DNA of 64,000 nucleotides from an uncultured SAR86 cluster bacterium (GCA_902594515.1 CACJML010000003.1:96989-160988); one strand, 5' to 3'; counted from the first letter of the stretch, positions 34,011 through 45,300 are shown. Notes: generated by a model from the letters alone, not told the origin. Made by a program: numbers and translations.

Positions 34011-35396
34011 ATGAAATATAGAATAGAAAAAGACTCTCTTGGTGAAGTTAAAGTGCCATCAACCGCACTTTGGGGCGCTCAAACGCAAAGAGCATTGGAT
34101 AATTTCCAAATCAGCGGCATTAAGTTTGCATTTCCTTTTGGAAGATCTTTTATCGAAGCGATAGGCATAATCAAGTACGCTGCTGCTAGCTCTAATGCGT
34201 CATTAAAATTACTACCATCAAGCAAAGCAAAGCACATAAAATTTGCTGCTAAAGAGATTATTGATGGCAAGCATGATGATCAATTTCCATTAGATATTTT
34301 CCAAACAGGCTCGGGAACGAGCACAAATATGAATGCAAATGAAGTCATGGCAACAATTGCATCAAAAAAAGGCAAATCATCAATCCATCCAAATGATGAT
34401 GTAAACATGAGTCAAAGCAGTAATGACGTTATTCCAACAGCAATTCATATTTCTGCTCTACTTGATGTTGAAAAGCAATTATTACCATCTCTTCAAAGCC
34501 TTATAAATCAAATAAAGTCTAAAGAATCTAAAGTAAAGGGCATTGTTAAAACTGGGAGAACTCATCTTATGGATGCTATGCCTATCGAGATGTCTCAAGA
34601 GCTATCAGGTTGGTCTACTCAATTAGGCGATCAATATAACCAAATTAAGCTGGCAGCTGAAGGCTTAAAATCATTGCCTCAAGGGGGTACAGCAATAGGA
34701 ACTGGGATCAATGCACCTAAGAAATTCGGAAATATTTTTGCCAACGAGGTTTCAAAACTAACAAAGATAAAATTTAAGCCATCAAGAAACTATTTTAAAT
34801 CTCTTAGCAGTCAAGATGCTACTACAAATATGTCCAGTGCAGTAAAGAACTTGGCACTAGTGCTTTTGAAAATCTCAAATGACTTAAGATGGATGAATAG
34901 TGGCCCTTTAACTGGTTTAGGAGAAATTGAACTTCAGGCTCTTCAACCTGGAAGTAGCATCATGCCTGGAAAAGTTAATCCTGTTGTATGTGAATCGGTA
35001 ATGATGGCTTCGGCTGATATATTAGGAAATGATTTGACTGTTTCCTATGCAAATCAAGCTGGAAACTTTCAATTGAATGTTATGTTGCCTGTGATTGCAT
35101 ATAACTTGCTTAAAAGTATTACTCTTGCAGCTAACTCATGTGCTTTATTGTCTTCTAAAGGAATTAAAACCTTTAAGGTTAATAAAAGTAATATCGAAAA
35201 ACAATTAGCTAAAAATCCTATTTTAGTTACTGCTCTCAATAGAGAAATTGGCTACGAAAAGGCTGCTTTGATTGCTAAAAAAGCCTACAAGGAGAACAGA
35301 CCTATAATTGATGTTGCACATGAAGAGACAGGCATATCGATTAAAAGATTAAATTCAATACTTGATCCAAAAAAGCTTACCAAAGGTGGCATCTAA
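34011..35396 (+). CDS. fumC: Fumarate hydratase class II
   Basis: WGAQTQR, QTGSGTSTNMNANEV, HPNDDVNMSQSSND, KTGRTHLMDA, GSSIMPGKVNP. Confidence 0.95.
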   Translation: MKYRIEKDSLGEVKVPSTALWGAQTQRALDNFQISGIKFAFPFGRSFIEAIGIIKYAAASSNASLKLLPSSKAKHIKFAAKEIIDGKHDDQFPLDIFQTGSGTSTNMNANEVMATIASKKGKSSIHPNDDVNMSQSSNDVIPTAIHISALLDVEKQLLPSLQSLINQIKSKESKVKGIVKTGRTHLMDAMPIEMSQELSGWSTQLGDQYNQIKLAAEGLKSLPQGGTAIGTGINAPKKFGNIFANEVSKLTKIKFKPSRNYFKSLSSQDATTNMSSAVKNLALVLLKISNDLRWMNSGPLTGLGEIELQALQPGSSIMPGKVNPVVCESVMMASADILGNDLTVSYANQAGNFQLNVMLPVIAYNLLKSITLAANSCALLSSKGIKTFKVNKSNIEKQLAKNPILVTALNREIGYEKAALIAKKAYKENRPIIDVAHEETGISIKRLNSILDPKKLTKGGI

Positions 35397-35399
35397 TTC

Positions 35400-35732
35400 A
35401 TGGATCTAACGAAACAAAACTGTGAAGCATGTACCATTGATGCTCCATTAGTAGATGAAAAAAGATTTAACAAACTTTTAAAGGATCTTGATGGTTGGGA
35501 AATTATTTTTGGAGACACTAATATACTCTCTAAAACCTATTCATTTAATAGCTACGATGACTCTGTCAAGTTTTCCATGGACATTGCGAAATTAGCTGAA
35601 GACGAAGATCACCATCCGGCAATTTTATTAGAATGGGGTTCTGTAAGAGTTCAATGGTGGTCACATAAAATAAAAGGCTTACACATGAATGACTTTATTT
35701 GCGCAGCCAAAACTGAATTACTAGCTAAATAA
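35400..35732 (+). CDS. phhB: Pterin-4-alpha-carbinolamine dehydratase
   Basis: CEAC, AEDEDHHP, WWSHKIKGLHMNDFICAAK. Confidence 0.93.
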   Translation: MDLTKQNCEACTIDAPLVDEKRFNKLLKDLDGWEIIFGDTNILSKTYSFNSYDDSVKFSMDIAKLAEDEDHHPAILLEWGSVRVQWWSHKIKGLHMNDFICAAKTELLAK

Positions 35733-35771
35733 CTTCATAAAGTTATTTTTGTTTTTTCTTTTCCCTAAAAG

Positions 35772-35777
35772 TATAAT
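35772..35777 (+). promoter_or_regulatory. Consensus -10 box just upstream of the guaB start (candidate leaderless promoter)
   Basis: TATAAT with 5 nt before ATG 35783; no SD-like sequence. Confidence 0.5.
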
Positions 35778-35782
35778 TCCAT

Positions 35783-37246
35783 ATGGAAAAGATCAAATTC
35801 AAAGCCCTTACATATGATGATATCTTGCTGTTGCCAAGATACTCTGACTTTGCACCAAAAGAAGCCTCTCTAAGAACAAAACTTACTAGAGAAATATCTC
35901 TAAATTTACCAATAATTTCAGCTGCAATGGATACAGTAACTGAATCAAGAATGGCAATTGCTATGGCTGAAAGCGGAGGTATTGGAGTTATTCATAAAAA
36001 CAATACTATTGAAGATCAAGCAGTTCATGTTCGAACAGTTAAGAAATATGAGAGTGGGATTGTAAAAGATCCGATAACGATTGAGTCAACTCAATCGATC
36101 GAAGACCTTGTTAAGCTGACAAGTGAACTCAATATCTCAGGTATGCCAGTTGTTGATGATGGAGTTTTAAAAGGCATCGTTACTTCTAGAGATTTTAGGT
36201 ATGCAGACAATTTAAATGAATTTGTTAGTTCTATCATGACTCCACTTGATAGATTAATTACTGTTAATGAAGGAACTCATCAAGATGAGGTAAAAAAATT
36301 AATGTATCATAACCGCATTGAAAAGGTATTAGTGCTGGATAATGCTGGCAGTCTTTCTGGACTAGTTACCATGAAGGACATAGATAAGTCTGCTGAATTT
36401 CCATTAGCAACTAAAGATAGCTCAGGACAATTATTGGTTGCTGCTGCTTTAGGAACGGGTGCCGATACATTGGATAGGGCCGAAGCCCTCAATGAAATGG
36501 GCGTAGATGTATTTGTTGTCGATTCAGCTCATGGCCACTCAAAAAATGTTATTGAAACTATCAAACTGCTAAAAAATAACTTTAAAGATGTTCAAGTGAT
36601 TGCTGGAAATGTTGCAACACCTGATGGTGCAGTTGCTTTGGATGAGGCTGGAGCAGATGCAATCAAGATAGGTATGGGTCCTGGTTCAATATGCACCACT
36701 AGAATCATTGCAGGAATGGGTGTCCCTCAAATCACAGCAATATTATCAATTAAAGATGCTATGAAAAATTCAAAAACACCATTAATTGCTGATGGTGGTA
36801 TTAGATTTTCAGGCGATTTAGCAAAAGCAATAGCTGCTGGCGCATCTTCGGTAATGCTTGGCAGCATGTTGGCAGGAACAGAAGAAGCTCCAGGTGAAAT
36901 AGAACTTTACCAAGGCAGAAGCTTTAAAACATACAGAGGAATGGGTTCATTAGGCGCAATGTCAGAAAGAAATGATGCAAATAGATATTCTCAAGATGAG
37001 GTAGAGGCAGAAAAGCTTGTTCCTGAGGGAGTAGAAGGCAGGGTGCCTTATAAAGGTGTTGTAGTTAAAGTTTTAGATCAGTTTGAGGGTGGGTTGCGTC
37101 AAAGCATGGGATACGTAGGATGCAAAACCATAGAATCAATGCAAACTGAAACAGAATTCATCGAGGTAACTAATGCTGGGATGATGGAAAGCCATGTTCA
37201 CGATGTCATGATTACTAAAGAAGCTCCAAATTATCAAAGAAGCTAG
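35783..37246 (+). CDS. guaB: IMP dehydrogenase
   Basis: [22 protein letters not shown] pair, [33 protein letters not shown]. Confidence 0.97.
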
Positions 37247-37247
37247 G

Positions 37248-38537
37248 TTATAAAAAAATAAATTTTGACAAGAAGACTATTGTAAGAAACCACGCTCCTG
37301 TGGAGATAGTTTTAAGTTGACCTGAAAAAATTTTTATTACCACATAAGATAAAAATCCCAGCGCTATTCCATTGGCAATCGAAAAGGTTAATGGCATCAT
37401 CACAATTATTACAAGAGCTGGTAGTAGGTCGCTTAAATCAGACCAATTCAGTTTTTCCATGCTCCTCAGCATCAAGATTGCTACGTAAATCAATGCACCA
37501 GATGTTGCATAAGCAGGAATCATCGTAGCAAGTGGAGCAAAAAATATTGCCAAAAGAAACAAAATTCCAACTGTAACTGCAGTTAGACCAGTTCTTCCTC
37601 CAGCCTCTATTCCAGCAGAGCTCTCAACGTAACTAGTTACAGGAGAGCATCCAAATAAAGAACCAACAGCACTTGAACTACTATCAGCTTTCAGTGCCTT
37701 ATCTAAATTATCAATGCCACCATCAGCATTTATAAGTTTGGCTTGGTTAGCAACTCCAACAAGGGTTCCAGCTGTATCGAATAAGTTAACAAAGAGAAAA
37801 GACATAATGATGCTGATCATGGCTAAATCAAATGCTTCAGAAATATCAAGTTTCAACAAAACTGGCATTAATGAGGGGGGGGATGAAATGATTCCATTAA
37901 ATTTAATTAGATTTAGAGCTAAAGCCATTGAAGTCACTAAAAATATTCCTATAACAATGGCGCCAGGTATTTTACGAATAGATAGTACGGCAATCACTAA
38001 AAAACTAATCATTGCTAAAAGAGTTTCTGGCTTTGTTAGGTCGCCCATGCTGAGAAGGGTAGCTTCATTTGAAGTAATTATCCCGCCAGTTTTAAGACCA
38101 ATAATTCCAATGAATAGACCAACACCTGCACCCATCGCAATTCGTAAATTGAAAGGAATACTCTCTAACATCCATTGTCTAAATGGCGTTACACTCATTA
38201 TAAAAAATAGAATTCCAGCTAAAAATACGGCACCTAAAGCCACTTCCCATGAGTAACCCATCTCACCAACAACTGTATAAGTAAAAAATGCATTTAGACC
38301 CATGCCTGGCGCTAAACCAACAGGCCAATTTGCATATACTCCCATTGCAATACAGGCAATAGAGGCAGCAATACATGTTCCAACGAAACTGGCACCAATA
38401 TCCATGCCACTTGCGGCCATCATTTGTGGATTGACAAAGATAATGTATGCCATTGTTATGAATGTAGTGATGCCCGCAAGAATCTCACTTTTAAAATCAG
38501 TATTAAAATTTTTTAATTTGAAGATTTTTTCGAGCAT
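37248..38537 (-). CDS. NCS2/AzgA-family purine nucleobase permease
   Basis: EILAGITTFITMAYIIFVNP, APGMGLNAFF, FDTAGTL, VTSYVESSAGIEAGGRTGLT, PLTFSIANG. Confidence 0.95.
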   Translation of the reverse strand: MLEKIFKLKNFNTDFKSEILAGITTFITMAYIIFVNPQMMAASGMDIGASFVGTCIAASIACIAMGVYANWPVGLAPGMGLNAFFTYTVVGEMGYSWEVALGAVFLAGILFFIMSVTPFRQWMLESIPFNLRIAMGAGVGLFIGIIGLKTGGIITSNEATLLSMGDLTKPETLLAMISFLVIAVLSIRKIPGAIVIGIFLVTSMALALNLIKFNGIISSPPSLMPVLLKLDISEAFDLAMISIIMSFLFVNLFDTAGTLVGVANQAKLINADGGIDNLDKALKADSSSSAVGSLFGCSPVTSYVESSAGIEAGGRTGLTAVTVGILFLLAIFFAPLATMIPAYATSGALIYVAILMLRSMEKLNWSDLSDLLPALVIIVMMPLTFSIANGIALGFLSYVVIKIFSGQLKTISTGAWFLTIVFLSKFIFL

Positions 38538-38740
38538 TTTTTCTCTAAAGGTATTTAAAAATTAAGTTTACAACTTATACTGTATTTTTGTTATAGCTTT
38601 TAAATGCATTTAACAACCAAAAGTAAATCTCTCATACTTTTCAAGGTTCCAAATTTTTAAAAATTATCTAACAAAAAATGGCATTAATATTGCATAAATA
38701 TTATACAAGAGCATATTCTTTAAAAAGGGATTAAAAAATT

Positions 38741-41041
38741 ATGAAATCAACAAGTCATCTTAAAAGTATTAAGTATTTCGCACTTCTTTTTGGTTGCATT
38801 GGTCTTAGTGCACAAGATAGCTTTATAGAAGAAGTATTTGTAACTGCCGAAAAGAGAAGTGAAAGCTTGCAAGATATATCACAGGCAGTGACGGCAATAA
38901 GCGATGAGGATATAGAAAATAAAAACATTACCTCTTTTGTAGATCTAAGTGCAATTGTTCCTGGAGTAACTGTTGCAAAGAATGAAGGTTACAAGACCGT
39001 AATTTCTATAAGAGGTGTTGGAAATGAAACCAATCAAAATGCGATTGCAGCTCCTTCAGTTGCTTTCCACATGGACGGTATTTTTATAGCTTCTCCCTTT
39101 TCATTACAAACTGATTTTATTGATGTAGAAAGAATTGAGGTCTTAAGAGGCCCTCAAGGAACACTCTTCGGACAGAATTCAACTGGGGGAGTGATAAATG
39201 TAATCAGCAAAAAACCATCCATGGAAGGATATTTAGGGAAATCTGATATCACTTTTGGAAATTATGGCCTAACAAAATTTCGCTCATCTAATAATATCGT
39301 TTTAGGTAGTTCAACTGCTGCCAGATTTTCAATTTCCACTACAGAAAGAGATGGTTTTAGTGAAAATCTAGTAACTGGACAAGATCTAGATGATGATAGT
39401 AACTTGAGCCTTCGTGCGGATTTCCTTACAGAGTTTGGAAATAGTTCTTCGTTAAGATTTTTTGGTCAGTTTTTTGAAGTAGATAGAAATGGTTCTGCAA
39501 TGAAAGGTATTGATGATCCTTCACCAGACCCAAGGGACTTATCTCAAGACTCTATCTCAAATCATGAGCTAACTTCAAAGATCTTTGCTGCAATTTATGA
39601 ATCTGATCTTGGTTATGCAAATTTAAAAATTATGGCGAGCATGCAAGAGGATGACATTTCAGTAACCAGAGATAATGATCGTCACAATTTCGGTGATCCC
39701 GTTTTAGCAATTCCTGGACTAGGAGACGGAGCAACTTATCAGAGAGCTGAGTTTCGCCCTGAAACCTCTTTAGTCGATACAACAACCTTTGAAATTAATT
39801 TAGTTTCTAATGAGCCAGCTATGGGTGGAAAGCTTGATTGGACTATTGGTGCTTTCTATATGGATCATGAGATTGAAAATCATATTCGAGGATATAGAGA
39901 TAATGATTTAGACGGAGAATTACAATATGTTTGTGGTGAGCCTTTTGCAAGAAATGATTACTGTTTTACAGTTGGTGGTCCGGATCCCTGGTTTTTCTTT
40001 GAATTTGACTTTGTAAGTGATGCTTTCCCAAAAAGAGAGTCATTCTCAGTTTATGGAGAAACTACCTACAGCATTTCTGACGAATTTCGTATTCTTAGTG
40101 GGCTTCGCTATTCTGATGATGAGGTCGAAAGTTGTGTTAAAAATTTCTTCACAACTGTATGTGACAACTTAAGTGGTAGTTCTGATAAGACAACTGGAAA
40201 AATAGCTGCTGAATTTGATCTTGATGATGATACTTTGGCATATCTTGCTTTCTCGGCTGGCTTCAAACCAGGTGGAACAAATCTTACATATGGCTTTGCT
40301 GATGATAATGCGCCCCCAATGGTTTTCCCGAATTTTGCGGCTGAAACAGTAGAGTCCATGGAATTTGGTTTAAAAACAGACTTATATGATGGCAGGGCAA
40401 GAGCAAATATTGCAATCTTTTCATATGATTATGAAAATCTTCAATTCCAAGCGACAGATCCTGATCCATACCGAGGTGGTGTTGCAAACATTCCAGAATC
40501 AGAAATGTCAGGTTTAGAGATTGAATTTACTGGCTTAATTTCTGATTCGCTAACTTTAGACATGAATCTAGCATTTCTTGATTCAGAAGTATCCTCTGAT
40601 TATGAAGCACTAGATAATGTTGATGCATACCAGTACTTCTTTGGTGAAGAAGATTTGAGATATGGTCTAAGAAAAAATATTAAAGGTAATGAACTTGCAA
40701 AAACTCCTGAATTTACAGCTGACATAACAATGACATACGAAACTGTATTATCTTCAGGAACAATGTTTACTGGAATACTTCAATATGTTGAAAGAGGTGA
40801 ATTCCAACAACGTGTAAATAACAATCCGATAGTAGATGCTATTGATGCTTATGACATTTTGAACCTAACTGCGAGCTTTGATTTTGTTGGCGATAAATGG
40901 GGACTAGATTTTATGATCTTGAATGCGACTGATGAAGATGGAGTTAATTCCAGTATGACAGACGTGTTTGGAGTTGCAGCCACCGGTTTAGAATTAATTC
41001 CACCAAGACAATATATGCTTAGATTGAGCATGAACTATTAA
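38741..41041 (+). CDS. TonB-dependent outer-membrane receptor
   Basis: Signal peptide; TonB box EEVFVTAEKR; plug motif ERIEVLRGPQGTLFGQNSTGGVINV; barrel ending PPRQYMLRLSMNY. Confidence 0.95.
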   Translation: MKSTSHLKSIKYFALLFGCIGLSAQDSFIEEVFVTAEKRSESLQDISQAVTAISDEDIENKNITSFVDLSAIVPGVTVAKNEGYKTVISIRGVGNETNQNAIAAPSVAFHMDGIFIASPFSLQTDFIDVERIEVLRGPQGTLFGQNSTGGVINVISKKPSMEGYLGKSDITFGNYGLTKFRSSNNIVLGSSTAARFSISTTERDGFSENLVTGQDLDDDSNLSLRADFLTEFGNSSSLRFFGQFFEVDRNGSAMKGIDDPSPDPRDLSQDSISNHELTSKIFAAIYESDLGYANLKIMASMQEDDISVTRDNDRHNFGDPVLAIPGLGDGATYQRAEFRPETSLVDTTTFEINLVSNEPAMGGKLDWTIGAFYMDHEIENHIRGYRDNDLDGELQYVCGEPFARNDYCFTVGGPDPWFFFEFDFVSDAFPKRESFSVYGETTYSISDEFRILSGLRYSDDEVESCVKNFFTTVCDNLSGSSDKTTGKIAAEFDLDDDTLAYLAFSAGFKPGGTNLTYGFADDNAPPMVFPNFAAETVESMEFGLKTDLYDGRARANIAIFSYDYENLQFQATDPDPYRGGVANIPESEMSGLEIEFTGLISDSLTLDMNLAFLDSEVSSDYEALDNVDAYQYFFGEEDLRYGLRKNIKGNELAKTPEFTADITMTYETVLSSGTMFTGILQYVERGEFQQRVNNNPIVDAIDAYDILNLTASFDFVGDKWGLDFMILNATDEDGVNSSMTDVFGVAATGLELIPPRQYMLRLSMNY

Positions 41042-41083
41042 AAAGTTATTCAGCTCTTCTCTTAAAATTCGTGGTTATCAATA

Positions 41084-41089
41084 TATAAT
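41084..41089 (+). promoter_or_regulatory. Consensus -10 box just upstream of the PRTase start (candidate leaderless promoter)
   Basis: TATAAT with 5 nt before ATG 41095; no SD. Confidence 0.45.
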
Positions 41090-41094
41090 TAGCC

Positions 41095-41661
41095 ATGGAA
41101 AAGCATTTTATTAGAGCCGAAGATCTTATTCAGGACTCTTTCAACCTCGCTTTGCAAGTCTATGAGGATGGCTACAGGCCCAACTACATAATTGGTGTTT
41201 GGAGAGGCGGAGCGCCAATAGGAATTGCTGTTCAAGAACTTTTTAGTGTTCTAGGCGTTACTTCTGATCACATTGCCATCAGAACGTCTCATTATAAAGC
41301 TATCAATCAAAGAGAAACTGAAGTTCAAGTATATGGACTTAACTACATCATTAAGCAAGTGGAATCCGAAGATTCACTCCTTATAGTTGATGATGTCCAT
41401 GACACCGGCATATCTATTGAAAAGATAATTTCCGACCTTAAGTTCGCTTGTAAAAAAAATACACCTGAAATAAGAGTAGCTACACCATATTTCAAGCCAA
41501 CAAAAAATAAAACTAAAAGAAAACCAGATTACTACCTTCATGAAACTGATAAATGGTTAGTATTCCCACACGAACTTGAGGGCCTTTCATTAGAGGAAAT
41601 AGGAGATAATAAACCCGAAGTCTCAAAACTGATTAATAAGTTATCAAAGCTTATAAAATGA
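41095..41661 (+). CDS. Purine (hypoxanthine/xanthine-guanine) phosphoribosyltransferase
   Basis: [12 protein letters not shown]-binding [28 protein letters not shown]; overlaps the guaA start. Confidence 0.88.
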
Positions 41662-43238
41662 GTAGTAATATTTCTTTATCAAAAACAGATCTTGATACTA
41701 TTTTAGTTTTAGATTTTGGATCTCAATATACTCAATTAATAGCTAGGCGAGTAAGGGAACTCGGAGTATATTCCGAGATATTTCCTTGGGATATTCCAAC
41801 AGAAAAAATATCCTTACTTAATCCTAAGGGAGTAATTCTTTCTGGTGGCCCAGAATCTGTGACCCAAGAAAATACTCCAAGAATTCCAGAAATTATTTTT
41901 AACTTAGGTATTCCTATTCTGGGTATTTGTTATGGAATGCAGACATTGGCTGAGCAAAATGGAGGCAGTGTAAGCACTGCCTCTACGAAAGAGTTTGGTT
42001 ATGCAGAACTAAAGATTGAGTATCCATCAAAAATCTTTGATGGTCTAGATGTAAGAAATCTAGACGTTTGGATGAGTCACGGAGACCATGTTTCAATCTT
42101 GCCTGATGGTTTTATCTTGAGTGCATCAACTCAATCTGCGCCAATTGCTGCAATGGAGCACAAAGATAAGCCTTATTATGCTCTTCAATTCCATCCTGAA
42201 GTAACACACACAGATAAGGGTCAAAAAATCATAGAAAACTTCATATTAGATATTTGTAAATCTAATAGAAATTGGAAGTTAGATGACTTAATTGAACACA
42301 GAATAAAAGAGATTAAAGCTAAAGTAGGAGATAAAAAAGTTCTTTTGGGATTATCTGGGGGAGTCGATTCATCTGTAACTGCTATGTTGCTAGATAGGGC
42401 AATCGGCAAAAACTTAATTTGTATGTTCGTTGATAACGGACTTTTAAGAAAAAATGAAGTTGATGAGGTGGTAGATCTTTTTAAAAATAAAATTGATCTT
42501 AACCTTGAGGTTGTGGATGCAAAGAAAACATTTTTTAGACATCTTAAAGGTGTAACTGATCCTGAGCAAAAAAGAAAAGTTATTGGAAGGACCTTTATAG
42601 ATGTATTTGATAACGAATCAGTAAATCTGCATACCTCTGATGAGATTAATTTTTTAGCACAAGGAACAATTTATCCTGATGTGATTGAATCATCTGAATC
42701 TGAATCAAAAGAAGCAAGAATTATTAAGTCCCATCATAACGTTGGTGGCTTGCCAGAAGAAATGAAAATGAGCTTGGTTGAGCCGCTTAGGGATCTATTT
42801 AAAGATGAGGTCAGAAAAATGGGTGCCTTATTAGGCTTGCCTGTTGAAATACTTAAAAGACATCCTTTCCCTGGTCCTGGACTTGGGGTAAGAATATTGG
42901 GAGAGATAAATCAAGAAAATATTTCTATACTTCAAGAGGCAGACTCAATTTTTATTGATGAATTAAAAAAAGAAGGTCTTTATGATGAAGTAAGCCAAGC
43001 ATTTTGTGTATACCTGCCAGTCAAATCTGTTGGTGTAGTCGGCGATGAAAGACGTTATGCAGATGTTATAGCTCTAAGGTCTGTAAAAACTGTTGACTTT
43101 ATGACTGCAGAATGGTCAAAACTACCCCTAGAGTTTTTGGGTAGAGTATCAAATAGGATCGTAAATGAATTAGAGGAAGTAAGCAGGGTAGTTTATGACA
43201 TCTCAGGCAAACCACCTGCCACTATTGAGTGGGAGTAA
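41658..43238 (+). CDS. guaA: GMP synthase (glutamine-hydrolysing)
   Basis: [49 protein letters not shown]-terminal KPPATIEWE. Confidence 0.98.
43221..43238 (+). repeat. att-like direct repeat, copy 1 (guaA 3' end)
   Basis: ACTATTGAGTGGGAGTAA; 17/18 identical to 43792-43809. Confidence 0.85.
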
Positions 43239-43711
43239 TGATGCGTACGCTAAAAATCAGCACCTATTTAGCAGCAGATTTAGAGACGGTTAAGAGTTAT
43301 TTAATGACGCCAGCGCTACTCAATTATGTGGTGGCTGGTTTAATGAAATTCCATCCTATCGAACCAAATTTCTTTCCGTCAAAATGGGTTGAGGGGAAGT
43401 TCTCTGTAAAAATGTTCGCATTTCATTTTTTACCCATCGGAAAACAAATTGTAGGTATAGAATTTCCACAAAAATCCGATCATTGGGTTCTCAGAGATAA
43501 TGGAAGTGGTTCTATAGCAAAAACTTGGGATCATCTAATTTTTTTAGAATCGGAGGGAGGCGGAACTCGATATACAGATGAGGTTTCTATCGATGCTGGT
43601 CTTTTCACATTACCAATCTATATCTACGCATTCATTTTTTACTCCTATAGACAAATGCGATGGCGGAAACTAGTAAATCTCAATTTTAGGGAGTTACAAA
43701 AGCAGAAATGA
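43238..43711 (+). CDS. Hypothetical protein, probable SRPBCC/START-like fold
   Basis: ATG overlaps the guaA stop (TAATG; alternative ATG 43241); WDHLI...GGGTRYTDEV...FYSYRQMRW pattern typical of small SRPBCC-like proteins. Confidence 0.7.
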   Translation: MMRTLKISTYLAADLETVKSYLMTPALLNYVVAGLMKFHPIEPNFFPSKWVEGKFSVKMFAFHFLPIGKQIVGIEFPQKSDHWVLRDNGSGSIAKTWDHLIFLESEGGGTRYTDEVSIDAGLFTLPIYIYAFIFYSYRQMRWRKLVNLNFRELQKQK

Positions 43712-43719
43712 AGAACGAA

Positions 43720-43741
43720 ACTTGTAAACTACTTGTAAACT
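43720..43741 (+). repeat. Perfect tandem 11-bp repeat (ACTTGTAAACT x2), candidate integrase arm-type sites
   Basis: Read directly; about 50 bp from the right att-like repeat. Confidence 0.7.
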
Positions 43742-43791
43742 CAGTTTTGCCCCTCGTAAACCCTTGCTACATAAGGCTTTGTAAAAGTGTA

Positions 43792-43809
43792 ACTATTGAG
43801 TGGGAATAA
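43792..43809 (+). repeat. att-like direct repeat, copy 2
   Basis: ACTATTGAGTGGGAATAA, still encoding TIEWE* like the guaA C-terminus. Confidence 0.85.
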
Positions 43810-43810
43810 A

Positions 43811-44137
43811 ATGGAAGAATCTAATTACAAAGAATGGTCAGTTGATTTTAATGGAAAAATAATCAAAGTATCTAATTGGTGGAATTGGGAGGGGAAGTGT
43901 TCCGCAGATTTATATTTAGATAATGAGCACTTACATCAAAACACAGACATATTAGTAAATCCTAACAAAGCAATGCTTTTTAAAAGTGATGTTTCTGATG
44001 ATATAAAGTCTATTGAAGTTTTTTCAGCAGGGTTTTTCTCAGTCAAATTATCAATAATGGTGAACGGCACTGTGATTCTTCAAGATAAATTAAGTTTACT
44101 TGATAGATTTGCTAAATTATTTTTTTCAAAAAAATGA
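43811..44137 (+). CDS. Hypothetical small beta-rich protein
   Basis: ATG 43811 directly after repeat copy 2 (the track's TTG at 43796 lies inside the repeat); no recognised motif. Confidence 0.7.
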   Translation: MEESNYKEWSVDFNGKIIKVSNWWNWEGKCSADLYLDNEHLHQNTDILVNPNKAMLFKSDVSDDIKSIEVFSAGFFSVKLSIMVNGTVILQDKLSLLDRFAKLFFSKK

Positions 44138-45300
44138 AACAATCAGCCAGATTATCCTTTTACTCGGAGCTAGCTTTTGGCTTTGTTATTTTGCTTTATA
44201 CACTAGCAAACTTCTTATTAATTTTAGAGTTACCCTCAAATTTGATTGTCGGTTTAGCTGTGTTGCTATCAATTTCATTAATTATTCTAAACACACTTTA
44301 TAAAGGAGATTTTTATTTAAACTACATTGAAAAAAAAGCAGATCTTGTTTTGCTTGTCTCACTTCCATTAATTTTTTTATTTTTTAATCAGAACTTCGAA
44401 TCAGAATTTCTTGGTTTTATGTTAGTTGCGTCATTAAGTTATCTAGCAATATTTAACATGCGTAATTCTGATCTTCTATTATTAATATTTAGATGCATTT
44501 TTTACATTGTTCTTTTGGGAGTTTTGCTAGGCATCATTGAATACTATTTCTTTGAATCAAGTTATTTTAACGATACTGTTGAATTTTACCCATATAGCGC
44601 GAGTGGAACAAAGATTAGCTTTAGTGGCTTTATGTATAACTACAACTCAGTAACCTACTTTGTGATTTGCTATATGGCGCTTCTTTCTTTTCAGAATTCA
44701 GATATTAGAGACTATTTTTTACCGATAGTAATTTTATTTTTAATGTTTTCAAAGTTACTGATATTGTTTTTACTTCTTATCGTTTTAATTAAATTTTTCA
44801 AAGGAAAAGCAAGAATAGCTCTAAGCTTATTTGCAATAATGTCTTATTTAATTTTGTCGAATGTTGTAATTGTTGAGGAGGGGACTTACCCATATCCGTC
44901 TATGTATTTTAGAGAAATATTGACCTCATATATGAGTTGGGATTTAGTATTAAGCCTTCATGGGTGGTTAAAACAACAAGGTCTTCAAGAACTGCTAGTC
45001 GGAGCATCAAATTTTATTGAATTTGAAAATAAATATAGTTATCAGCCACACTCGTCATTAATATCATTTGGTTTATTGGGCGGTATTTATTTTCTTTTTT
45101 TATTTGTTGGGAACTTAATAATAGTTTCATTAAGAATCTTAAATCAGATAGATATTTCAGATGCCCCGATTTTATATGCAGCATTTTTAGCATTTTTGAT
45201 TGAATTAATTAATTGGGATTTTTATGATTCTTTCTATTTTTGGATAGTTTTTTTTATATGCTGCAAGAACTTGGTAAAAATTAAATCCAATAATAATTAG
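44134..45300 (+). CDS. O-antigen ligase/polymerase-like membrane protein
   Basis: About 11 hydrophobic segments and a Wzy_C-like PHSSLISFGLLGG motif near the C-terminus. Confidence 0.6.
   Translation: MKQSARLSFYSELAFGFVILLYTLANFLLILELPSNLIVGLAVLLSISLIILNTLYKGDFYLNYIEKKADLVLLVSLPLIFLFFNQNFESEFLGFMLVASLSYLAIFNMRNSDLLLLIFRCIFYIVLLGVLLGIIEYYFFESSYFNDTVEFYPYSASGTKISFSGFMYNYNSVTYFVICYMALLSFQNSDIRDYFLPIVILFLMFSKLLILFLLLIVLIKFFKGKARIALSLFAIMSYLILSNVVIVEEGTYPYPSMYFREILTSYMSWDLVLSLHGWLKQQGLQELLVGASNFIEFENKYSYQPHSSLISFGLLGGIYFLFLFVGNLIIVSLRILNQIDISDAPILYAAFLAFLIELINWDFYDSFYFWIVFFICCKNLVKIKSNNN

Follow-up and report, generated by a model that had tools for sequence, protein, structure and literature searches.

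The window analyzed here, a 64,000-nucleotide stretch of DNA from an uncultured SAR86 cluster bacterium, contains guaB and guaA genes separated by three genes for an AzgA-type NCS2 permease, a TonB-dependent receptor (TBDR), and a purine phosphoribosyltransferase (PRT). An earlier note on this DNA had recognized these five genes, and open reading frames together with family matches confirmed each of them at the same coordinates (Table 1). GuaB matched TIGR01302 at 596 bits (cut-off 481.5) and contained PF00478 with two CBS domains, and GuaA matched NF000848 at 795 bits (cut-off 400). The earliest ATG in the guaA frame overlaps the PRT stop by 4 nt, and the GuaA profile alignment begins at residue 15, suggesting that the true start of guaA may lie slightly downstream. 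Because guaB and guaA are immediate neighbors in the relatives G008, G012, G013, G019, and G021, the layout in the window results from insertion of the three-gene module into an ancestral guaBA pair.

Table 1. Genes and promoter motifs of the guaB–guaA region, with positions counted from the first letter of the window.
Feature	Position	Strand	Remark
guaB, IMP dehydrogenase	35783..37246	+	upstream flank of inserted module
AzgA-type NCS2 permease, inner membrane	37248..38537	-	divergent from receptor gene
sigma-54 (-24/-12) promoter, TGGCAT-N5-TTGCA	38679..38694	+	47 nt before receptor ATG
TonB-dependent receptor, 766 aa	38741..41041	+	Plug and barrel domains
sigma-70-like promoter, TTAAAA-16-TATAAT	41062..41089	+	between receptor stop and PRT start; weak
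purine phosphoribosyltransferase, 188 aa	41095..41661	+	PF00156
guaA, GMP synthase	41658..43238	+	downstream flank of module

The permease scored 157.7 bits against PF00860, and its PDB matches were the plant adenine/guanine permeases AZG1 and AZG2 only (E 2e-71 and 9e-52); no NCBIfam model matched it. Fold and nearest similarity place it as an AzgA-like NCS2 protein, with its substrate a prediction. The PRT matched PF00156 at 39.6 bits (cut-off 26.3) and fell under the equivalog cut-offs for both Hpt (TIGR01203; 32 vs 150 bits) and Gpt (NF006613; 27 vs 138 bits). It was nearer to archaeal purine PRTs than to these models: a profile of 34 orthologues, in all of which the acidic PRPP-binding motif VDDV is invariant, aligned over almost its full length with PDB entries 1vdm (1.6e-15), 4z1o (6.9e-11), and 4trb (1.9e-10). 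The archaeal purine PRT group includes both 6-oxopurine and adenine enzymes. The module PRT probably belongs to this archaeal-type (Gpt/COG2236-like) group and is probably specific for 6-oxopurines. Elsewhere, the genome encodes a separate Apt (NF002636; 169 bits vs 125), and its other PF00156 matches are this Apt, PurF, and a 329-aa frame that we take to be PRPP synthetase, which leaves the module PRT as the only candidate 6-oxopurine PRT in the genome. The earlier note had read the module as completing a route from environmental purines to GMP and had pointed to de novo purine genes as a check. purF, purM, and purH were each found over cut-off, indicating prototrophy for purines and a scavenging route that is not essential; the module would thus economize rather than rescue.

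The receptor scored 69.4 bits for the Plug domain (PF07715; cut-off 23.9) and 118.1 bits for the barrel (PF00593; cut-off 27), and consists of a signal peptide, a TonB-box-like EEVFVTA segment (residues 30–36), a plug, and a 22-strand barrel. By comparison with the consensus, we take EEVFVTA to be the TonB box; V34, E37, and K38 are invariant in the alignment of 94 family members. An AlphaFold2 model (pLDDT 85, pTM 0.85) has, in its overall fold, the predicted form of a 22-strand barrel closed by a plug, and Foldseek aligned it with FyuA at TM-scores of 0.72/0.87 (probability 1.00), with similar results for FoxA, FhuA, and PqqU. Our search for an energizing system, by ExbD, found three ExbD genes over cut-off in the genome. 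RNA-library contigs from three studies span the receptor gene, which signifies its presence in those libraries only.

Public sources call this protein an 'iron complex outermembrane receptor protein', and siderophore receptors, FyuA, PiuA, and FoxA among them, are its best PDB matches by sequence and by fold, as would be the case if it imported iron–siderophore complexes. However, identity to solved receptors was at most 19% among the Foldseek matches listed, the fold search offered no substrate clue, and no NCBIfam model reached its cut-off among the best 25 of 29 matched, with the top model, TIGR01783, at 118 bits against a cut-off of 223.5. The annotated neighbor clusters of 98 loci with receptor orthologues contained no iron-uptake or siderophore genes, and the promoter of the receptor gene in the window is of the sigma-54 type. 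Together, these observations make a siderophore receptor very improbable. Nor did siderophore, B12, or glycan genes, the ligand classes that the earlier note had named as evidence against a purine receptor, recur among these annotated clusters.

Comparison of genomes showed that the permease, TBDR, and PRT genes travel together. The trio was complete in 18 of 18 relatives' loci, drawn from three families of the order, an association far beyond chance. Of 41 genomes of the order, 26 encode all three proteins, with one copy of each gene and a full-length receptor, and the remaining 15 (85–97% complete) have none of them. Linkage persisted while gene order varied among lineages, so that the association of receptor orthologues with AzgA-type NCS2 and PRT genes proposed in the earlier note holds across distant lineages. 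Linkage to gua genes is secondary: the trio lies between guaB and guaA in one clade only (7 rows of the receptor tree) and beside guaBA in some genera, and in 8 of the 18 loci from relatives it is distant from gua. Thus, the conserved unit is the trio and not its position in gua.

Neighbor counts over 98 fetched loci gave 70 with the permease cluster and 64 with the PRT cluster, compared to 17 for the next commonest neighbor. At least one purine transport, salvage, or catabolism gene flanked the receptor in 82 of 94 family members, which came from records of SAR86-type bacteria, SAR92/Porticoccaceae, Halieaceae, Woeseia, Glaciecola, and others; no purine gene was nearby for 8 of the 94, two of these being on short contigs. 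Related genomes are non-independent samples, and these counts therefore exceed the number of independent events. The trio is present in an assembly labeled as the cultured SAR92 strain HTCC2207, and the receptor family, in loci without the trio, occurs in records of named Microbulbifer, Glaciecola, Paraglaciecola, and Alteromonas strains, making the idea testable at the bench.

The earlier note had also held that orthologues in unrelated contexts would count against a purine receptor. Instead, where the permease, the PRT, or both are missing, the locus often contains purine catabolism genes, including those for 8-oxoguanine deaminase (653 bits vs 532), a pbuX-like permease, XdhA/XdhB, urate oxidase, OHCU decarboxylase, HIU hydrolase, allantoicase, and urease. 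Four family members have a urease operon alone nearby, and an aldehyde dehydrogenase lies near the receptor in seven loci (six of them with a GST as well, and five with a GntR-type regulator). These neighbors would suit a receptor for another nitrogen-rich or unrelated compound, such as urea, a pterin, or a 7-deazapurine, that is merely co-located and co-regulated with purine salvage, and any nitrogen source would be compatible with nitrogen control. However, the prevalence of the permease and PRT over the next neighbor in the 98 loci and their exact match to the presence/absence pattern of the receptor argue against such a compound, and urease fits as the final reaction of purine breakdown, genes for which accompany it, as in L042. 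We therefore consider this explanation quite improbable.

Other purine-related neighbors in loci without the permease, the PRT, or both bear on the form in which purines might be imported. Genes for an adenosine-deaminase-like protein and a NUP-family protein (PF06516) adjoin the receptor in loci L061, L062, and L089, a NUP gene alone does so in L070, and a gene for a BMP-family binding protein adjoins it in L052, L060, and L067. In Microbulbifer and some Halieaceae, the adenosine-deaminase-like and NUP-family neighbors hint at a nucleoside substrate. The receptor in the window might likewise import purine nucleosides, nucleotides, or short nucleic-acid fragments that are stripped to the base in the periplasm before the NCS2 permease and PRT act, a route that would avoid a substrate smaller than is usual for TonB-dependent transport and that has a counterpart in the predicted SusC/D-type transporter and nucleases of a Bacteroides DNA-utilization locus (available text of PMC12478041). 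However, the SAR86-type module is limited to three genes, and no member of the PNP_UDP_1 (PNP/nucleosidase), IU_nuc_hydro (inosine-uridine hydrolase), NUP, or A_deaminase (adenosine deaminase) families was found in the 93%-complete genome, which favors a free base over a nucleoside. Import of nucleosides or larger compounds by this receptor thus seems unlikely.

The receptor also appears, from its upstream sequence and that of its orthologues, to be under nitrogen control, a point not in the earlier note. TGGCATTAATATTGCA, at 38679–38694, has the -24 GG and -12 GC elements of a sigma-54 promoter and is suitably spaced relative to the receptor gene. This was the single match to the pattern in the window, where the mean expected by chance was 0.21 and 17 of 100 shuffles contained at least one; across the genome there were 12 strict sites, compared to 0 for a reversed control pattern. 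A site lies just upstream on the same strand in 41 of 96 family orthologues, and the motif is absent in the other 55. The orthologue upstream stretches made up ~1.7% of the sequence searched yet held at least 41 of 65 sigma-54 matches. The rpoN match was barely over its cut-off (278.2 vs 277.35 bits), and NtrC (634 bits vs 558.6) was the sole strong sigma-54 activator (PF00158) in the genome. The other intergenic sigma-54 sites in the genome are found before glnII-ntrBC, an operon of porin-glnK-amtB, and an ORF of 91 aa without a known family. NtrC-type palindromes, sought by eye and by k-mer search over four promoters, were clear before glnII (TGCAC-N7-GTGCA), and none was found upstream of the receptor. 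In the clade of loci L017, L022, and L035, tandem glutamine riboswitches (RF01739; 63–66 bits vs a gathering score of 35) take the place of the promoter before the receptor; in window positions 35000–44000, no such riboswitch was found even at E up to 5. Downstream of the receptor, the sigma-70-like site matches at 10 of 12 positions, more than any other in the region; sites of this type show no enrichment relative to shuffled sequence. No terminator was predicted between the receptor and the PRT gene.

The gene identities, their linkage, the presence/absence pattern, the promoter motif, and the sister-clade riboswitches were all computed directly, and on this basis we consider it probable that permease, receptor, and PRT act together in a single purine scavenging route under nitrogen regulation. 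Its ligand, direction of regulation, and energy coupling are what we infer. In the proposed mechanism, the TBDR would capture a purine compound that is very scarce outside the cell and, via TonB–ExbBD, pass it to the periplasm, the likeliest substrates being the free 6-oxopurine bases guanine, hypoxanthine, or xanthine. The base would cross the inner membrane by the AzgA-type NCS2 symporter, and the PRT, with PRPP, would fix it as GMP, IMP, or XMP; in the source lineage, the flanking GuaB and GuaA could then convert IMP or XMP to GMP. If, as proposed, the sigma-54 promoter of the receptor gene is NtrC-dependent, uptake would be induced under nitrogen shortage, saving the nitrogen cost of de novo purines. 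Purine bases are ~135–150 Da and small enough for porins. To our knowledge, they are unusually small for TonB-dependent substrates, which counts against free-base import, and a free purine base would be the smallest organic substrate known to us for such transport. Each computational check put forward in the earlier note gave a result favorable to it. Within these bounds, the sequence comparisons support the earlier interpretation of the module as purine scavenging, with the substrate predicted from gene context.

A broader reading, which we advance only tentatively, is that the receptors form a TBDR family dedicated to free purine bases, widespread in marine Gammaproteobacteria and carried as a mobile cassette wired to nitrogen by two unrelated devices. 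Those devices would be the NtrC/sigma-54 promoter or the tandem glutamine riboswitches. In the receptor tree, PS1 clade/Rhodobiaceae-labeled receptors fall within a clade containing SAR86-type receptors, and one genome of the source's own genus has a receptor belonging to a different clade, placements that would reflect movement of the cassette between lineages.

Abundant heterotrophs of the ocean take up nutrients mainly through TBDRs, most of which have no assigned substrate. A purine-specific TBDR family would add a new substrate class and rename a public 'iron' receptor, and the module would couple purine uptake to nitrogen shortage. We found no description of a TonB-dependent purine receptor in the literature searched. 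The receptor shares a plug-in-barrel architecture and TonB box with BtuB (cobalamin) and PqqU (PQQ), both of which were among its sequence and fold matches (9c4o for PqqU), and the logic is alike, in that a scarce organic nutrient captured at high affinity is handed to a dedicated inner-membrane carrier. It differs from them in its low identity to the solved structures listed (at most 19%) and in its probable purine ligand, of a different and smaller class. BtuB is partnered by an ABC system and controlled by a cofactor riboswitch or Fur, whereas the module partner is an NCS2 symporter and control would be by nitrogen, through sigma-54/NtrC or a glutamine riboswitch. The -24/-12 promoter at the receptor resembles those of the classical NtrC/sigma-54 regulon (glnA-ntrBC, glnK-amtB), and glnII-ntrBC and porin-glnK-amtB in the same genome use such promoters as in that regulon. 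Unlike classical members, the receptor has no recognized NtrC palindrome upstream, and we know of no TonB-dependent purine receptor in the NtrC/sigma-54 regulon.

As described in the available text of PMC12478041, the Bacteroides DNA-utilization locus ddbABCDEF likewise ties an outer-membrane TonB-dependent transporter to nucleic-acid-derived compounds that end as nucleobases. That locus handles DNA fragments with nucleases at the cell surface and in the periplasm and has a lid subunit, DdbD, whereas the SAR86-type module has neither nuclease nor lid protein and would feed a base permease and PRT directly. For SAR11, Braakman et al. (2025; PMC11698098) describe, in the available text, a transporter for purine uptake paired with a purine phosphoribosyltransferase, the same minimal strategy of import and phosphoribosylation, by which a streamlined marine bacterium uses purines without breaking them down; that text mentions no outer-membrane component for SAR11, and the module has one. 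The same portion of the study reports purine usage genes absent from 57 SAR86 genomes, in contrast to the module's presence in 26 of 41 genomes of the source's order. If the module works as proposed, the picture of ocean purine use drawn there would need revision, with SAR86 becoming, contrary to that text, a nitrogen-driven consumer of dissolved purines. Our results point to a so far undescribed mode by which a SAR86-type ocean bacterium with a tiny genome could harvest scarce purines.

ORF calling together with Pfam and NCBIfam scans reproduced the gene map drawn in the earlier note, in which an NCS2 permease, a TonB-dependent receptor (TBDR) and a purine phosphoribosyltransferase (PRT) lie between guaB and guaA.

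Genes of the guaB-guaA interval and the calls on which they rest (window coordinates)
Gene or product	Position	Strand	Basis
guaB	35783-37246	+	ORF list, Pfam and NCBIfam scans
Xan_ur_permease (NCS2) protein	37248-38537	-	ORF list, Pfam and NCBIfam scans
TBDR, 766 aa, plug plus barrel	38741-41041	+	ORF list, Pfam and NCBIfam scans
PRT, 188 aa	41095-41661	+	ORF list, Pfam and NCBIfam scans
guaA	41658-43238	+	ORF list, Pfam and NCBIfam scans

We class the permease as AzgA-like because AZG1 and AZG2, adenine/guanine permeases of plants, are its sole solved relatives (E 2e-71). The PRT falls far short of the NCBIfam cut-offs for bacterial Hpt and Gpt, and the archaeal purine PRTs 1vdm, 4z1o and 4trb align with it over nearly its full length, both from the single sequence and from a 34-member profile. 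The TBDR reached no NCBIfam cut-off, is at most 19% identical to the solved receptors among the matches listed, and is named in public records "iron complex outermembrane receptor protein" or just "TonB-dependent receptor". As a siderophore receptor it failed on both model score and genomic context. Its AlphaFold2 model is a canonical plugged barrel (pLDDT 85, pTM 0.85), and a fold search with this model returned generic receptor matches only, which did not indicate a substrate. The window's genome (1.36 Mb, 93% complete, ~35% G+C) holds 11 TBDR-like matches and three ExbD genes, so the energising system is present. Thus, in domains, fold and TonB box, and with ExbD encoded in the genome, the TBDR is an ordinary TonB-dependent transporter in architecture.

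Across the order, a full-length TBDR orthologue occurs in 26 of 41 genomes (identity ≥50%, E at most 2e-205; paralogues come next, at about 1e-34). Permease and PRT are found in exactly the same 26 genomes, one copy each, and all three genes are absent from the other 15 (85-97% complete, several in one to three contigs). In genus g7, one genome has the complete trio and the other has none of the three genes. The genes of the trio are adjacent, so one assembly gap could delete them jointly; the high completeness of the genomes that lack them argues that most of the absences are real.

The order permease(-)/TBDR(+)/PRT(+) is kept in all 18 of the relatives' loci (20 kb each), and the place of this trio relative to gua varies. 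It lies between guaB and guaA in five relatives (G001, G004, G007, G016 and G023), as in the window, immediately upstream of an unbroken guaB-guaA pair in two (G012 and G019), and 1-4 kb away from guaBA in three (G008, G013 and G021); in the remaining eight loci no gua gene was seen within ~8 kb. The conserved unit is the trio and not its position in gua. Of the linkage proposed in the earlier note, the part that ties the receptor to permease and PRT therefore held, and the part that ties it to gua is secondary. In the receptor tree the seven sequences placed between gua genes form a single clade (support 97), so this placement looks like one entry of the module into an ancestral guaBA pair. 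Named records with the module include the single-cell genomes SCGC AAA076-P13 and AAA168-P09, the latter listed as SAR86 in the published table of PMC4611503. Going by these relatives, we treat the window's genome as SAR86-type.

The guaA stop codon is the exact insertion point of a 571-nt cassette (window 43221-43809), with the 18-nt guaA end directly repeated at its two edges (43221-43238 and 43792-43809). It contains two CTTGTAAAC repeats 11 nt apart, the second beginning 61 nt ahead of the repeat core, and its product, a 160-aa protein, matched nothing in Pfam. Among 151 genomes searched, eight others carry all or most of the cassette at 96-100% DNA identity and span all four families of the order, and a ninth has a partial copy (98% identical); G001, although of the same genus as the window's genome, lacks the cassette. 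The cassette follows a guaA in five of the six fetched loci, the window's own included, and the four foreign guaA proteins that precede it are just 58-74% identical to the window's. A phage origin was rejected after a phage collection gave no match. The depth of RNA-library contigs over the cassette is by far the highest of the region. Directly past it (43796-45300), G+C falls to 28-31%, and ORFs of 113 and 388 aa matched nothing in Pfam (E up to 1) or NCBIfam.

Beyond the order, a 17-member alignment flagged 511 relatives when run against one genome per species, and we fetched the best 80 of the 511 loci, whose receptors are 46-72% identical over their full length. Neighbour clustering of 98 loci, a partly redundant set (the locus L053, for example, repeats L016), placed the permease in 70 and the PRT in 64, followed by an MFS transporter and an aldehyde dehydrogenase (17 each). 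The divergent SAR86-type order was found too in SAR92/Porticoccaceae, in Woeseia and in records labelled PS1 clade; other arrangements were TBDR(+)/permease(+)/PRT(-)/PRT(+) in Halieaceae and Luminiphilus, TBDR(+)/permease(-) in several unnamed lineages, and PRT(-)/permease(+)/TBDR(+) in one locus (L043). Loci that lack the permease, the PRT or both often have purine catabolism genes in their place: an 8-oxoguanine deaminase (over cut-off), a pbuX-like permease, XdhA/XdhB, urate oxidase, OHCU decarboxylase, hydroxyisourate hydrolase, allantoicase, urease, and an adenosine-deaminase-like gene paired with a PF06516 (NUP) gene. A BMP-family binding protein and a RutR-like regulator also occur in such loci. 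At least one purine gene flanks the receptor in 82 of the 94 aligned family members, urease alone in four, and none in eight, two of which lie on contigs of 2.7 and 7.2 kb; as the genomes are related, the counts exaggerate how many independent events lie behind them. Such variety of gene orders and partners is hard to explain without a common purine-related role, and the comparative data on linkage and flanking genes thus back the proposal that the receptor imports purines.

The module also turned up in three records whose label is Rhodobiaceae or PS1 clade (Alphaproteobacteria), two (L047 and L048) with all three genes and one (L045) with receptor and PRT at a contig end; their receptors nest within the clade that holds the SAR86-type receptors, which reflects either transfer between classes or wrong labels. 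Divergence is generally faster in the receptor than in the permease and PRT. In G008, from the window's own genus, permease and PRT are ~70% identical to the window's and the receptor is only 47% identical, falling in a different tree clade near Woeseia-type sequences; here the receptor gene seems to have been swapped inside an otherwise conserved module.

Which purine form is imported bears on the main rival reading, in which the receptor takes up nucleosides, nucleotides or nucleic-acid fragments. The genome, which the earlier note had wished to see checked for de novo synthesis genes, encodes purF, purM and purH, each over its cut-off. Purine auxotrophy is thereby ruled out as the reason for the module, which would save resources and fill no gap. 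Across the genome, PF00156 matched Apt (169 bits versus 125), PurF, the module PRT and a 329-aa frame that we take to be PRPP synthetase. Because the others are otherwise assigned, the module PRT is the only candidate 6-oxopurine PRT. Searches of this 93%-complete genome for PNP/nucleosidase, inosine-uridine hydrolase, NUP and adenosine deaminase family members were negative, so an imported nucleoside would not be convertible to the base that permease and PRT need, which favours free bases as the substrate in this lineage. In lineages with deaminase and NUP neighbours, nucleosides may be the substrate. Under either reading the receptor takes up a purine compound, and this we regard as very likely; narrowing the ligand to a free base is close to an even call, if anything slightly below it.

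Upstream of the receptor, TGGCATTAATATTGCA at 38679-38694, 47 nt ahead of the TBDR start, has the classic -24/-12 form of a sigma-54 promoter, and the pattern matched nowhere else in the window. A k-mer scan of 29 intergenic regions returned mainly AT-rich words, its useful product being the word TGGCAT that led to this site. Among 96 family orthologues, 41 have a slightly relaxed form of the pattern just upstream on the same strand, 29 of them in the strict form; TBDR-upstream stretches make up ~1.7% of the searched sequence and hold at least 41 of its 65 pattern matches. The genome has 12 strict sites, compared to none for a reversed control pattern, and four of the intergenic sites stand 28-47 nt ahead of a gene. 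These genes are a glnII-like glutamine synthetase with ntrB and ntrC behind it, a TorF-family porin that precedes glnK and amtB, the TBDR of the module, and a 91-aa ORF. The genome encodes rpoN, barely over cut-off, and the sole strong sigma-54 activator found is NtrC, with 7% of the genome unseen. No NtrC palindrome was seen upstream of the TBDR, in contrast to the glnII upstream region, and a k-mer search over four sigma-54 promoters of the genome gave no shared upstream motif. We infer that the TBDR would be a member of a very small NtrC regulon.

An Rfam search of window 35000-44000 (E up to 5) gave two chance-level matches and no purine, PRPP, xanthine or glutamine riboswitch, and at gathering score 27 of 30 related loci had no riboswitch. 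The other three (L017, L022 and L035), which form one receptor clade without the sigma-54 motif, have tandem glutamine riboswitch aptamers right before the TBDR (63-66 bits against a gathering score of 35). With two unrelated kinds of nitrogen sensor found in the same place, control of the receptor by nitrogen status is strongly suggested. The full reading, nitrogen-regulated outer-membrane purine import, probably as free 6-oxopurine bases, appears to us reasonably likely.

The porin-glnK-amtB set named above is the ammonium transporter operon of this genome (G000:C2:5608-7832), in which a sigma-54 promoter stands before the gene of the TorF-family putative porin. Under nitrogen control, then, every inner-membrane importer of nitrogen in this cell seems to have a dedicated outer-membrane channel to go with it. 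A sigma-70-like site at 41062-41089 hints, weakly, that PRT and guaA may have a promoter of their own. RNA-library contigs (four runs, three studies) that span the receptor and portions of permease and PRT record presence in the libraries only, since DNA may have been carried over and contigs give no transcription start, strand or level; the bins they leave uncovered are given no weight. In a Halieaceae assembly, an IMES-1 RNA motif (locus L072, 6415-6602, minus strand; 130.6 bits, gathering score 81) sits immediately upstream of the TBDR orthologue in opposite orientation.

We found no description of a TonB-dependent transporter assigned to a purine, nucleobase or nucleoside in the open-access literature and bioRxiv preprints. 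The closest functional parallels to the module's TBDR are the small-nutrient receptors BtuB and PqqU and a Bacteroides DNA-utilisation locus (PMC12478041), which relies on nucleases and a lid protein; the module has neither. The available text of PMC11698098 states that SAR86 is without purine usage genes, whereas we find the module in 26 of the 41 genomes searched of the window's order. The purine assimilation pair of SAR11, a transporter and a purine PRT, as outlined in that text, has the same inner logic as the module; no outer-membrane component is mentioned there, and the module has a TBDR. Judged from sequence and context, this TBDR would be best described as a receptor family for a new substrate class, with unusual nitrogen control.
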